NCBI GenBank assembly: GCA_905612465.1
Contig: CAJQSC010000004.1
Location: 5,443 to 69,442 of the forward strand
Direction: 5' to 3'
DNA length: 64,000 bases
Origin: an uncultured Candidatus Pelagibacter sp.
GTDB taxonomy: Bacteria; Pseudomonadota; Alphaproteobacteria; Pelagibacterales; Pelagibacteraceae
Positions within the stretch are counted from its first letter, which is position 1. Each line of letters starts with the position of its first letter. The translations under genes and the position numbers were made by a program. Shown here one piece after another: positions 34,025 to 38,372 of the stretch. Below the pieces are notes generated by a model. That model had not been told where the DNA came from. It searched no databases and saw only the letters and a program-made list of their open reading frames with translations.

Positions 34025-34990
34025 TTAGAAAAATCCATTTGGAATAATAATGTAGTGAATTGCTAATACAATTGCTACAGACACAGTTAATCCCAAAGTC
34101 ATTTTAAGAAAATCTTTACCAATAAGTGGGAAAACATATTTAAATTTGTAATCACTATTCATTGAGGCAATTGCTAATTCTCTTCCACATAATAGTCCTA
34201 CAAACACCCAGGTTGTAGACATTGGTAAGTCATTAAGTTCTTTAAAGTAATATAGAACACCAGCATAAATAATATTTATTATTGTTGCTGATCTTGCATA
34301 TCTTGTTCCAGTTTTCTCTAATACAACTTTTTGGATTTCTCCACCATGAATGTAGAAAATATAAAATAATAGAACTGTAAAATAACCTAAAACAATTAAT
34401 AATAATGTTACATCTAATTGTCTTGGTAGATATACAGCTATATTAGCTACATCATGAGATAACCAAGCCCACCATAATAAACCCGAAGTAAACCATACTG
34501 AGTTACGCCAGAAACCAATCCATTTATCTTCAACTTCATCTAATTTTTCATTAATAAATTTTGAAATAATAATCCAGCAAATGTAAGCAGCTATTGCTGC
34601 AAGGCCATAACCCACAACGCTTTTCATAAGCATTTTTTCAAGTATTACAGTTGATGCAAAAGCAGACAAAACTAGAAATGTTGTAGAGACAGGTATTCCA
34701 AATCTTGTTAATACCAAAAGTATTCCTGGAGCCACAGCATGATACCATTGAATTTCCTGGTAAGGTATTTGAGTTAATCTTCCATATGAGATATCACCAT
34801 CATTACTGTACCAGCCCCACGTAATAGCAAGGATCAGTACAAATGATGCTGCACTTGCAAGGGTATACCATTTAAACCATTTTTGTTTTGAGGCAATAAA
34901 AGTACCCAATGTTTGAATTGAGTCATTTGCTATTACACTATATCCAGCTAATGCAAATCCAATGATCGTATATAAAAGCGTAAGTTCCAT
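34025..34990 (-). CDS. Multi-pass membrane transporter, distantly PiT/PHO4-like
   Basis: Two related repeats: ANDSIQTLGT...GIPVSTT and HDVAN...LPMSTT, resembling the PiT GANDxxN and PVSTT signatures; about 9-10 TMs. Confidence 0.6.
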   Translation of the reverse strand: MELTLLYTIIGFALAGYSVIANDSIQTLGTFIASKQKWFKWYTLASAASFVLILAITWGWYSNDGDISYGRLTQIPYQEIQWYHAVAPGILLVLTRFGIPVSTTFLVLSAFASTVILEKMLMKSVVGYGLAAIAAYICWIIISKFINEKLDEVEDKWIGFWRNSVWFTSGLLWWAWLSHDVANIAVYLPRQLDVTLLLIVLGYFTVLLFYIFYIHGGEIQKVVLEKTGTRYARSATIINIIYAGVLYYFKELNDLPMSTTWVFVGLLCGRELAIASMNSDYKFKYVFPLIGKDFLKMTLGLTVSVAIVLAIHYIIIPNGFF

Positions 34991-35176: not shown

Positions 35177-35398
35177 TTAAAATATAACTTTATAAATTCC
35201 TAATAAGAACAGTGGTATCTGTAGCCCAAAGTTAGTTAATATAGCTTTATCTTTTGATATAAAACCAGCTATTGTCCAACCAATAACACCCAGTCCATGA
35301 AAGTAGATATTGATAGGGTAGATGTTTAGATTTGTTAATAATATTCCTATTAATACAAGAGCTGTACTAATCCATTTTAAGTATTTTTTTATAAACAT
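35177..35398 (-). CDS. Small 2-3 TM membrane protein (DUF6552-like, function unknown)
   Basis: LKW.ST..LIG..LT.LNIYP.N...G..GW pattern; AAGGAG RBS upstream on the minus strand. Confidence 0.75.
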   Translation of the reverse strand: MFIKKYLKWISTALVLIGILLTNLNIYPINIYFHGLGVIGWTIAGFISKDKAILTNFGLQIPLFLLGIYKVIF

Positions 35399-35476
35399 AG
35401 TCTCCTTTGTATGTAAGTTTTGTTATTAATTTATTACAATTATAGAGAAAACAAAAATCTTTATTACCAAAAGGTA

Positions 35477-35506
35477 TTGACATAATAAAGTGTTATGTTA
35501 TAACAT
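35477..35506 (+). promoter_or_regulatory. Sigma70 promoter of the zur-like gene, probably leaderless
   Basis: TTGACA at 35477-35482; TATAAC at 35499 or TAACAT at 35501-35506, the latter 6 nt before the ATG at 35513; no SD sequence. Confidence 0.7.
35491..35505. promoter_or_regulatory. Zur box (TGTTAT-N3-ATAACA)
   Basis: TGTTATGTTATAACA matches the proteobacterial Zur core TGTTATAnTATAACA at all but one position and overlaps the -10 element. Confidence 0.8.
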
Positions 35507-35512
35507 CACATA

Positions 35513-35875
35513 ATGAATAATAACGATATAGTTTTTGATTTAATTAAAAAATCCAAGAAGCATTTAACTGCTTATGAAATATTAGATAAATTTCAAAAAT
35601 TTAAGAAGATACAACCGATGGCTGTTTACAGATCTTTAAAAAAACTAATAGAAGAAGATAAGATACATAAATCCAATCAAAATAAGACTTATGTATTGTG
35701 CAGTCATGAACATGTTAAGCATAATCCATCTATAGCTATTTGTAGAGATTGTGGAGACACAGAAGAGCTTAATTCAGAATTATTTGAAACAATATTTAAA
35801 AAAAACCCAATAAAAAAATATGACTTCAACAAGTTTCAACTTGAAGTCTCAACAATATGTAGGAGATGTAACTAA
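35513..35875 (+). CDS. zur: Fur-family metalloregulator, Zur-like
   Basis: TAYEIL, P..VYRSL, YVLC-His-rich loop, two CxxC (CRDC, CRRC); Zur box upstream. Confidence 0.8.
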   Translation: MNNNDIVFDLIKKSKKHLTAYEILDKFQKFKKIQPMAVYRSLKKLIEEDKIHKSNQNKTYVLCSHEHVKHNPSIAICRDCGDTEELNSELFETIFKKNPIKKYDFNKFQLEVSTICRRCN

Positions 35876-36273
35876 TGGAACACGCACACGAATTACCAGA
35901 ATTTCTTCATTTTTTAGAAGAACTTATAGAAGAATATGGAATATTAAGAGGTTTTATCTTTGGCTTTATACATACATTAATTCCATTAATTGGTTTTTAT
36001 TCAGGTTGGAGTATCAACCGTTTTTTAAAATTGGTTTCTAACGGTGCAATTGCTGGAATTATTGGAATAGTTTTAGCTCATATTATAGCGGACTTTATAG
36101 CAGCCATGCTTGATCCTAACTTAAAAAGTGCAGCTTATGGAATTGTTCTTGGTGGATTCTTACCTTTATTAGCAGTACCTTTTTTAGAAAAGTATATAAC
36201 TAAAAGTCAGTATCATAATGTGGTAGGTGATCACGAAGATTTAAAAAAGGATTTGAAAAGTAAACATAAATAA
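35875..36273 (+). CDS. His-rich 3-TM membrane protein of unknown function (candidate metal transporter)
   Basis: ATG overlaps the zur stop (TAATG); 8 His; three hydrophobic segments. Confidence 0.8.
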   Translation: MEHAHELPEFLHFLEELIEEYGILRGFIFGFIHTLIPLIGFYSGWSINRFLKLVSNGAIAGIIGIVLAHIIADFIAAMLDPNLKSAAYGIVLGGFLPLLAVPFLEKYITKSQYHNVVGDHEDLKKDLKSKHK

Positions 36274-36288
36274 TATTTAATAGTTTGT

Positions 36289-37287
36289 GTGAATACAGTT
36301 TCCTTAACTTTAAATGAAATATTAGAATTAGCTAAAAAAACATTATTAGCTAATGGTTGTGATGATGAAAATGCCAGTATTTTAGCAGACACAATCATGA
36401 GAGCCGAAAGAGATGGTTCCGTTTCTCATGGTTTGTTTAGATTGCCTGCTTATGTAGCTGGTTTAAAAAGCAAAAAAATTAACGGTAAAGCAAGACCTGA
36501 ATTAGAAAATGTAGCCCCAAGTATTATTAAAGTATTAGGTAATAATGCCGTTGCACCAATGGTTTTAAGTTTAGGACTACCAGCGGTTATTGATTTAGCT
36601 AAAAAAAATGGTGTAGCAGTTCTTGCCATAAAAAACTCACATCACATGGCAGCACTTTGGCCTGAAACTGAAGCTATTGCAGAAGCTGGTCTTGTTGGTA
36701 TCGCTTGTACATCTTACAAACCAGCCGTTGCTCCAGCGGGCGCTACAAAACCTTTGTATGGAACAAATCCAATTTCTTTTGCTTGGCCTAGACCTGGCAA
36801 AACTCCAGTTGTCTATGATATGGCGACTGCTTCAATGGCAATGGGCGAAGTTCAGATTGCAAAAAGAGAAGGACACAAAGTACCCCTTGGAACTGGCTTA
36901 ACTAAAGATGGAAAAGAAACTACTGATCCTGGAGAAATCGCTGATGGTGGAGTTATACTTCCTTTTGGTGGATATAAAGGATCTAGTATAGCAATGATGG
37001 TTGAGCTATTAGCTGGAGCGTTAATTGGTGAAAATTTTAGTTTTGAGACTGCTGCTAAAGATAATAACGATGGTGGCCCACCTAGTGGTGGTGAATTTAT
37101 TATAGCAATCTCACCTGAGAAAATTTCTGGTAAAGGCTGGGATAAGCACGCTGATGAATTTTTTAATAAAATGTCAGCTATGGAGGGAGTTAGACTTCCA
37201 GGTGAAAGAAGACATAAAAATAGATTAGATAAAGGTCCAAGAAATATTAACGAAGAGTTGGTAAATAAAATTAAATCTTTAAGCTAA
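36289..37287 (+). CDS. Ldh_2 (AllD/ComC/DpkA-like) NAD(P)-dependent oxidoreductase
   Basis: G..SHGL.RL, HHMAAL, GTNPI, DMAT, PFGGYKG, RLPG; GTG start. Confidence 0.9.
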   Translation: MNTVSLTLNEILELAKKTLLANGCDDENASILADTIMRAERDGSVSHGLFRLPAYVAGLKSKKINGKARPELENVAPSIIKVLGNNAVAPMVLSLGLPAVIDLAKKNGVAVLAIKNSHHMAALWPETEAIAEAGLVGIACTSYKPAVAPAGATKPLYGTNPISFAWPRPGKTPVVYDMATASMAMGEVQIAKREGHKVPLGTGLTKDGKETTDPGEIADGGVILPFGGYKGSSIAMMVELLAGALIGENFSFETAAKDNNDGGPPSGGEFIIAISPEKISGKGWDKHADEFFNKMSAMEGVRLPGERRHKNRLDKGPRNINEELVNKIKSLS

Positions 37288-38055
37288 TTCAATTTCAATA
37301 GGTGTGTGATCAGAGGGTTTTTCTTTTCCTCTTGGGTCTTTATTAATTTTAATATCCTTAACTATATTTAATAATGAGTTGGATACTAAAAAATGATCTA
37401 TTCTTAACCCATTATTTTTTTGCCAAGCACCCCTCATATAATCCCAATAAGTATAACCTTCTTTTTCACCGTGAATATGACGGTAAGCATCATGGAAACC
37501 TAGATTAATCATTTCTCTAAATTTTTTTCTTATCTCAAGTCTGTACAAAGCATCATCTTCAAATCCTTTAATATTATATGCATCTTCCTCTGAGGGAAGT
37601 ATATTGAAATCACCAGCTAAAATTATATTTTCATTTTTTTTTGAAAGAGTTTTTAGTTGTTTAATTAAACTATCAAGCCACTCTTTCTTGTATGAATACT
37701 TTTCGGTATCAACAGGGTTACCATTTGGTGTGTAAATATTAATTATTTGTATATTTTTTTTCTTATGTTTTAATTCTGCTGAAATAATTCTAGATTGTTT
37801 TAATTTATCTTTAATTAAATCTAATCTGACATTTTCTAATTTATGTTTAGAAATTATAGCAACACCATTGTAACTTTTTTGACCAAAAACATGACTTTCA
37901 TAATCTAGTGCTGAAAAATCATCATAAGGAAATGTTTCATCTTGAGTTTTAATTTCCTGCATCATAACGACATCTGGAGAAAATTTTAGCAAGTACTCTT
38001 TAATGTTTTCAATCCTAGCTCTAACAGAATTTACATTCCAGGATGTTATAATCAT
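37279..38055 (-). CDS. xth: Exodeoxyribonuclease III (AP endonuclease)
   Basis: SWNVNS, QEIK, YNGVA, GDFN, RIDH, SDH. Start moved to the ATG at 38055 that overlaps the erpA stop. Confidence 0.95.
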   Translation of the reverse strand: MIITSWNVNSVRARIENIKEYLLKFSPDVVMMQEIKTQDETFPYDDFSALDYESHVFGQKSYNGVAIISKHKLENVRLDLIKDKLKQSRIISAELKHKKKNIQIINIYTPNGNPVDTEKYSYKKEWLDSLIKQLKTLSKKNENIILAGDFNILPSEEDAYNIKGFEDDALYRLEIRKKFREMINLGFHDAYRHIHGEKEGYTYWDYMRGAWQKNNGLRIDHFLVSNSLLNIVKDIKINKDPRGKEKPSDHTPIEIELA

Positions 38056-38372
38056 TATACTGAGAATGAAACGCCACAGCCACAAGAAGACTTGCTTTGT
38101 GGATTTGATATTTTGAATTGATCACCAATTAATTCAGTAACAAAATCGACCTCTGAACCCTTTAATAGATCAGCTGAAGTTTTATCGATAAGAATATTTT
38201 CATGTTTTAAATCGTCAGATGCTAATTCTTTGTCAAAAGTAAATTCATATTGAAATCCAGAACATCCTCCACCTTTAATGGCGATTCTAAAATATGACCC
38301 TGGATCCTTTTGGGACAGTAAATTATTAATCTGTTTAATGGCTTTATCTGTAAATTTAATTTCTTTAATCAT
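38055..38372 (-). CDS. erpA: Iron-sulfur cluster insertion protein (HesB/IscA/ErpA)
   Basis: GGGCSGFQY and CGCG.SF. Confidence 0.9.
   Translation of the reverse strand: MIKEIKFTDKAIKQINNLLSQKDPGSYFRIAIKGGGCSGFQYEFTFDKELASDDLKHENILIDKTSADLLKGSEVDFVTELIGDQFKISNPQSKSSCGCGVSFSV

Follow-up and report, generated by a model that had tools for sequence, protein, structure and literature searches.

A zur-coupled three-helix protein of TMEM65 type as a candidate zinc importer in place of ZnuABC in SAR11

The locus described here lies in a window of 64,000 nucleotides, the whole stretch of uncultured Candidatus Pelagibacter sp. DNA that was analysed, and consists of two genes on the forward strand: zur, encoding a regulator of 120 aa, and an open reading frame (ORF) encoding a membrane protein of 132 aa (Table 1). 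Both meet in a TAATG stop/start overlap, as the preliminary description had it, and we infer that zur and the ORF are translationally coupled there. The flanking genes are a DUF6552 gene on the left, and on the right a Ldh_2-family dehydrogenase and a gene that, from its motifs, we take to be xth. Further to the left, at 34025-34990 on the reverse strand, lies a divergent PHO4/PiT-like gene of 321 aa (Pfam E 0.2 only); such a gene also neighbours zur-less copies of the ORF at five other loci (L187, L193, L196, L199 and L229).

Table 1. Features of the zur-ORF locus, in positions of the window
Feature	Position	Strand	Basis
DUF6552 gene, left flank of the slot, outside the cassette	35177..35398	-	Domain scan, slot comparison
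-35 hexamer TTGACA of the predicted zur-ORF promoter	35477..35482	+	Sequence and TTGAC conservation
Predicted Zur operator: 15-bp dyad and overlapping second dyad, covering the -10 region	35491..35510	.	Conservation, likeness to znu promoters
zur, zinc uptake regulator, 120 aa	35513..35875	+	NCBIfam Zur best match; best PDB match 4MTD
TAATG stop/start overlap	35873..35877	+	ORF coordinates
132-aa three-helix membrane protein, His-substituted TMEM65-like, predicted zinc importer	35875..36273	+	Sequence, profiles, AlphaFold
H33, helix 1 (D of GFxDN in TMEM65-like proteins)	35971..35973	+	155/155 loci; alignments
H69-x-x-x-D73, helix 2 (N..SD of TMEM65-like proteins)	36079..36093	+	155/155 loci; alignments
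C-terminal H114..GDHED..H131 tail, predicted cytoplasmic	36214..36267	+	H114 in 155/155 loci
Ldh_2-family dehydrogenase (+) and xth-like gene (-), right flank of the slot, outside the cassette	36289..38085	.	Domain scan, slot comparison

The zur gene had been described as having its promoter covered by a regulatory box, and this is what we find: TGTTATGTTATAACA, at 35491-35505, begins 14 bases after the start of TTGACA and overlaps the -10 candidates of the zur-ORF promoter. A second copy of the dyad, on the reverse strand and with 1 mismatch, overlaps the first and extends to 35510. In the window alone, 3-mismatch matches to the box stand at chance level (8 found vs 9.5 expected), and its significance is drawn from conservation across genomes and not from window counts. 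The exact 15-mer is present in 31 of the 36 ORF-bearing genomes, a reversed control pattern matched once in 201 genomes, and TTGAC occurs 12-16 bases 5′ of the box in 43 of 49 exact-box matches (loci L001-L080). Five near-complete genomes with the ORF contain a single exact dyad, the box of the zur-ORF cassette, and where zur is divergent (L065, L073, L172) the box lies 41-42 bases before the ORF. Boxes of the form TGTTATATTATAACA, one base different from TGTTATGTTATAACA, are found at SAR11 znuA/znuC promoters, and the box also resembles the Zur boxes given for Caulobacter and E. coli in the accessible parts of PMC4176598 and PMC4219657. Uptake genes that carry similar boxes over their -10 region are repressed by Zur in Caulobacter (PMC4176598). 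In three ZnuA-bearing genomes (L137, at G157:C3:32175; G182; G183), perfect double boxes lie away from the znu locus, 5′ of other genes, and may mark further Zur targets.

The zur start codon is located approximately 7-9 bases after the -10 candidates (window 35505-35513), so the zur-ORF mRNA may be nearly leaderless. The zur-ORF stretch is contained in 14 metatranscriptome runs. Among the six RNA runs examined, contigs from three studies start at 35527-35528 and two span both genes; one run of unrecorded kind extends upstream of that point. Since contigs cannot show a transcript start or a single transcript, these starts are a weak hint on zur-ORF expression, and the absence of cover at 35337-35503 in several RNA runs was left out of the evidence.

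Zur is the best-scoring NCBIfam model for the 120-aa protein (E 4.9e-13, under its cut-off of 167), and a Pfam FUR match over the cut-off (36.7 bits) indicates a Fur fold. The closest solved structure is that of E. coli Zur, 4MTD, whose site B ligands H77, C88, H96 and E111 (as given in the accessible text of PMC4219657) align with H52, C63, H70 and E85. C77 and C80 align with two cysteines of site A, and a second CxxC is located at C116/C119. C63, H70, E85 and both CxxC motifs are kept in 27 of 27 Zur proteins linked to the ORF, a tally that does not include the H52 column. It is reasonable to regard the protein, from its sequence, as a Zur of the Fur family that is predicted to bind the box in a zinc-dependent manner.

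The His and Asp residues attributed earlier to the 132-aa protein (H3, H5 and H12, H33, H69xxxD73, H114, H120 and H131) are all present, and the three transmembrane helices proposed for it are recovered by AlphaFold as confident membrane-length helices at 22-43, 58-79 and 84-99 (mean pLDDT 75.5). H33, H69, D73, D80 and H114 are invariant across 155 distinct loci. Conservation of the first three had been named as a check, and they were not part of the patterns used to collect the loci; the GDH[ED]D part of the tail was itself a search pattern, which biases its count. The N-terminal His are variable, with H3 in 87/155 and H5 in 80/155 loci and the remainder mostly unaligned. A search for longer or fused forms, between 260 and 2000 aa and confined to A4, gave one match. 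Tandem paralogue pairs with one short copy exist at L168:3856-4679, L210, G033:C6 and G037:C34 (G033 is an unpublished genome); in the L168 pair the other paralogue has a signal-peptide-like start and both have the H/H/D triad. It is possible that such pairs form heterodimers. The ORF is present twice, without zur, at L133 (G041:C2:250000-267000), within a stretch of about 4.1 kb that is duplicated in tandem.

The kinship of this protein was reached through intermediate homologues. Across 1.84 billion representatives searched, phmmer reaches proteins with GxxFGxxDN/GNxxSD motifs (D/N-type) at E 7e-12 to 6e-5. PF10507 (TMEM65) matches 10 of 12 D/N-type proteins at E <= 0.05, with 2 over the cut-off, and 15 of 26 viral ones at E <= 0.001. 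Profiles of the His-type and D/N-type align at 99.5% (E 7e-23, over 110 columns), and a mixed alignment, A1, aligns at 96.8% with P0273 (PF10507 E 7e-23), in which H33 stands opposite D, H69 opposite N and D73 opposite D. In the Pfam scan PF10507 does not match the ORF protein at E <= 1, hence it is under the gathering cut-off, and the Atlas lead from the ORF to TMEM65 is 0.84 only. The resemblance to TMEM65 with D/N replaced by His, put forward in the preliminary description, is thus upheld by way of the intermediates: judged from these alignments, the 132-aa protein is a His-substituted relative of TMEM65.

With the TMEM65 family (PF10507; human TMEM65, mitochondrial Ca2+ efflux) the ORF protein has in common three helices and a glycine-rich helix 2; it differs by the His in place of D and N, by an additional His/Asp C-terminal tail and, relative to the mitochondrial protein, by being bacterial and linked to Zur. 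The H114..GDHED..H131 tail is absent from the D/N-type relatives that were aligned. D132 and D167 of human TMEM65 presumably lie in the two motifs, in which case the first is His in the ORF (H33) and the second is kept (D73). Both aspartates are required in human TMEM65 (accessible text of PMC12830682), and whether TMEM65 itself transports is disputed (PMC13483046, in part).

D/N-type relatives are also found in 84 viral stretches and in pelagiphage HTVC109P, as gp04, annotated as hypothetical. Viral D/N-type proteins share DP and GIxxG motifs with the ORF, but have D/N and not H/H and lack the GDHED tail. The His-type gene was not found in viral contigs with two pattern sets, a PHROGs search with the ORF protein gave no match, and the Zur-type box is absent from 80 of 80 viral D/N-type loci. 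The gp04 gene (L391:820-1104) lies near the left end of the pelagiphage genome, other D/N-type genes being at L232-L311; perhaps these viral TMEM65-like proteins serve cation flux in infection. P0216 and 2 of the 80 viral loci have D/N in helix 1 and His in helix 2, and such mixed forms are possible steps between the two types.

ZIP/ZupT, CDF and MntP are membrane metal transporters that act independently of ATP and have His/Asp sites. The ORF protein resembles them in its His/Asp residues and in its predicted independence of ATP but, unlike them, has three helices only. ZIP (PF02535) scores 21.8 of the 35.1 bits needed, over positions 7-106 of a profile of 323, and MntP 23.1 of 24.4; we rejected membership of MntP on the score, and of ZIP on the score and on three helices vs about eight. 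The HxxxD motif had been likened to the zinc site of CDF transporters, an analogy that does not hold as kinship, since there is no PF01545 match, one HxxxD instead of paired motifs, and three helices instead of six. As far as profile scores go, the protein falls under the cut-off of every family tested.

Comparisons of structure were less specific. Sequence search of solved structures with A1 gave nothing below E 0.55, and Foldseek against PDB and BFVD gave nothing at E <= 0.001 with either model. PsaL heads the Foldseek lists, which, on modelled structures, we take as a common three-helix arrangement. EgVIT1 (6IU4) matches one model with Z 7.7 (87 aligned at rmsd 4.5) and the other with Z 7.8 (84 aligned at rmsd 3.1), PsaL being equal or higher; these searches point to no transporter in particular. 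VIT1 carries Fe and Co, and in the EgVIT1 dimer the ligands D43 and M80 come from TM1 and TM2 (accessible text of PMC7714665), a spacing that resembles that of H33 and D73, where the ORF has His and Asp. VIT1/Ccc1 has five helices and a cytosolic metal-binding domain, whereas the ORF protein has three and no such domain. Prediction of a homodimer of the ORF protein with two Zn scored 0.16 and 0.26 (mark 0.42) and was counted neither for nor against.

Of 120 close homologues, 51 begin with some 22 additional aa that resemble a signal peptide, with a basic start, a hydrophobic core and in most cases xxA-AE at the end. Acidic residues prevail in the N-terminal segment (7 D/E, 1 K/R), and loop 1 and the tail contain 9 K/R. 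Taking the extensions and the charge pattern together, we predict an N-out/C-in topology. This would be the inverse of both exporters in comparison, TMEM65, with its N-terminus in the matrix (PMC12830682, in part), and VIT1, which is N-in and a H+ antiporter.

We analysed linkage to zur in the 146 loci (out of 155) with at least 600 bases upstream, classed by record title. Adjacent zur was expected across homologues, and it holds for most SAR11 loci (81 of 98, with the box in 79; downstream controls for the box, 0/92) but is not universal: of 29 other non-SAR11 loci, 15 have zur beside the ORF and 8 have the box, and neither is present in the 19 SAR86/gamma loci. The ORF without adjacent zur therefore amounts to 17/98, 14/29 and 19/19, respectively. 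At eight other loci the ORF adjoins a gene of the ZrgA zinc-uptake family; six of these were checked and have no box of the zur-ORF type within 900 bases. This adjacency fits a tie of the ORF to zinc, yet is also compatible with an accessory role. In G205, outside SAR11, the ORF occurs together with a znuAB-like operon. The order of G202 (101 genomes) has the ORF in 20, ZnuA in 1 and ZIP in 0, and 80 of its genomes match none of them, which implies that streamlined cells can dispense with all three. At six loci (L200, L202, L204, L206, L209, L216), a MerC-like gene and an unannotated gene of 450 aa are divergent from zur-ORF-zrgA-ABC-DUF3299, a candidate for a larger zinc locus in marine alphaproteobacteria. 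ArsC-like phosphatase and aquaporin genes often adjoin either cassette (L128, L131, L133, L134, L154-L161), and a CDF gene is adjacent to the ORF, on the opposite strand, in four loci.

The preliminary description placed zur and the ORF "instead of znuABC", and genome counts agree. In a sample of 200 family genomes with completeness of at least 90%, the ORF is found in 36 and ZnuA, over its cut-off, in 155; none has both, and nine have neither, three of these deduced from absence in the list of matches. The counts include two unpublished genomes, G033 (ORF) and G087 (ZnuA), without which they are 35 and 154. One ORF-bearing genome, G040, shows a weak sub-cut-off ZnuA match (E 1.5e-4) and is 6% contaminated. 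Among the 36 ORF genomes, ZnuB was found in none (3/3 controls and 1/9 "neither" genomes were positive), ZrgA in none, ZIP over the cut-off in none, weak ZIP matches being the ORF itself, and NRAMP over the cut-off in two. ZnuA and ZIP were not found in the genome of the window either, which is 50% complete and was left out of the argument. Fisher's test gives P 1e-31 for the exclusion, a value that we do not rely on because related genomes are not independent. In this sample, the box-zur-ORF cassette and znuABC are mutually exclusive.

This exclusion is played out at shared chromosomal slots, for which regions were taken from 29 of the 36 genomes with the ORF and from 50 of the 155 with ZnuA. 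In genus g1, xth is no more than 5 kb away from 36/36 znu cassettes and from 16/17 ORF cassettes, a count that takes in the genome of the window; most of these cassettes have DUF6552 on one side and Ldh_2 on the other. Genus g6 has a second common slot, where the two neighbours of znuABC in G023 are also those of zur-ORF in G006 and G013. A tree of xth and dgt from 51 of 53 g1 genomes, those with both genes covered, requires 12 changes of cassette state, of which starred branches force at least 6 (mean after shuffling, 13.2). The Zur tree, built from 77 rows with few columns, requires 2. Cassettes have therefore been swapped repeatedly, each as a whole with its own Zur, and we infer exchange by recombination in the flanks. 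The znuA/znuCB-zur cassette is found in both orientations at the same slot (L118-L122, L136, L312-L371). The SAR11 Zur-znuABC system (PMC4771312) thus shares regulator family, box type and chromosomal slot with zur-ORF; against the approximately 880 aa of binding protein, permease and ATPase in ZnuABC (L119), there is one protein of 132 aa and no ATPase.

Hogle et al. (2016) reported znuA in 50% of 22 SAR11 genomes and, in the accessible text, no ZIP or NRAMP, leaving the origin of the znuA patchiness open (PMC4771312). The accessible part of a 2026 preprint places ZnuABC among variable genes (10.64898/2026.10.07.757358). Our literature search, with most subscription papers and the supplements outside its scope (those of the two works just cited might list the gene), gave no description of the 132-aa protein or of a replacement for znuABC in SAR11.

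Zur repression, replacement of an importer, His-rich ligands and inverted topology are most simply explained together by an importer. A homodimer is likely, since a three-helix chain probably needs a partner copy to form a path. We consider it likely, on the whole of these observations, that the ORF protein is a homodimeric, ATP-free Zn2+ importer, a uniporter driven by the membrane potential, which replaces ZnuABC. At high zinc, Zn-bound Zur would block the -10 region; at low zinc, zur and the ORF would both be made. The protein would insert N-out/C-in, and a dimer would likely form through helices 1 and 2, in the manner of VIT1 protomers, bringing H33, H69 and D73 of both copies into a nitrogen-rich intramembrane site of zinc type. 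Zn2+ would travel inward, driven by membrane potential and by the low level of free zinc in the cytoplasm. On the periplasmic side, the variable His/Glu segment may serve to concentrate the metal beforehand; on the cytoplasmic side, the conserved His/Asp tail may pass it on or gate the pore.

It is also conceivable that the ORF protein does not transport alone, but is a metal-capturing or regulatory subunit that gives a general divalent-cation transporter, or an ABC system, a zinc route. Its place beside zrgA in eight loci, its coexistence with a znuAB-like operon in G205 and the description of TMEM65 as a regulator of NCLX in one study (10.1101/2023.10.06.561062, seen in part) would suit such a role; however, the SAR11 cassette has two genes only, no partner gene travels along, the swap with znuABC is one for one, and invariant polar residues lie mid-membrane in the helices, and we regard this reading as unlikely. 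His/Asp metal sites are not exclusive to zinc. Slightly less probable still, in our judgement, is an importer under Zur control whose specificity is broader or different (Co, Mn, Cd, Ni), so that cells could use another metal in place of zinc, or else a protein that buffers or senses zinc at the membrane: besides the nature of such sites, the Fe and Co carried by VIT1 (PMC7714665, in part) and the many ORF copies without a Zur link speak for it, while the site B ligands kept in ORF-linked Zur, the match between the boxes of the ORF cassette and of znuABC, and the loss of znuABC that accompanies the ORF in 36/36 genomes speak for zinc uptake.

The direction reported for VIT1 and TMEM65 is out of the cytosol or matrix (accessible text of PMC12830682 and PMC7714665), and four loci have a CDF gene adjacent on the opposite strand, so a zinc exporter was considered, in strains that live in ample zinc and need no high-affinity uptake. 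This is very improbable, given that the box overlaps the -10 region, where Caulobacter Zur represses uptake genes (PMC4176598, in part), for which reason the ORF would be off at high zinc, and that the predicted topology is inverted. We give the least credence to a phage-derived membrane gene without metal role that came to lie behind a zur promoter left over after loss of znuABC. The nearest distant relatives are indeed viral (84 viral stretches; HTVC109P gp04), but the viral contigs searched gave no gene of His type, the ORF goes with its own Zur clade and not with znu-linked Zur, the box is kept in rearranged loci and the His substitutions are invariant.

Returning to the importer, the 132-aa protein is predicted to work like a Zur-controlled metal permease and appears to descend from TMEM65-like proteins. 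We lean towards a still broader proposition, with somewhat less assurance than for the importer itself: that these proteins form a new zinc importer family, with members among the smallest such importers, of TMEM65-type three-helix build, akin to phage proteins, N-out and with carboxylate ligands turned into His. Each would act by itself as a Zn2+ uniporter without ATP, and in SAR11 the gene would be exchanged one for one with znuABC as a two-state allele. Of the 45 genomes that lack ZnuA in the 200-genome sample, 36 are explained by the cassette, and the candidate replacement is about one seventh the size of ZnuABC. Zinc uptake would become a two-allele marker, one that ocean metagenomes could reveal in relation to zinc levels. 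If the reading is true, a prokaryotic relative of TMEM65 would gain a function, and the dispute on whether TMEM65 transports cations by itself would gain a small bacterial model.
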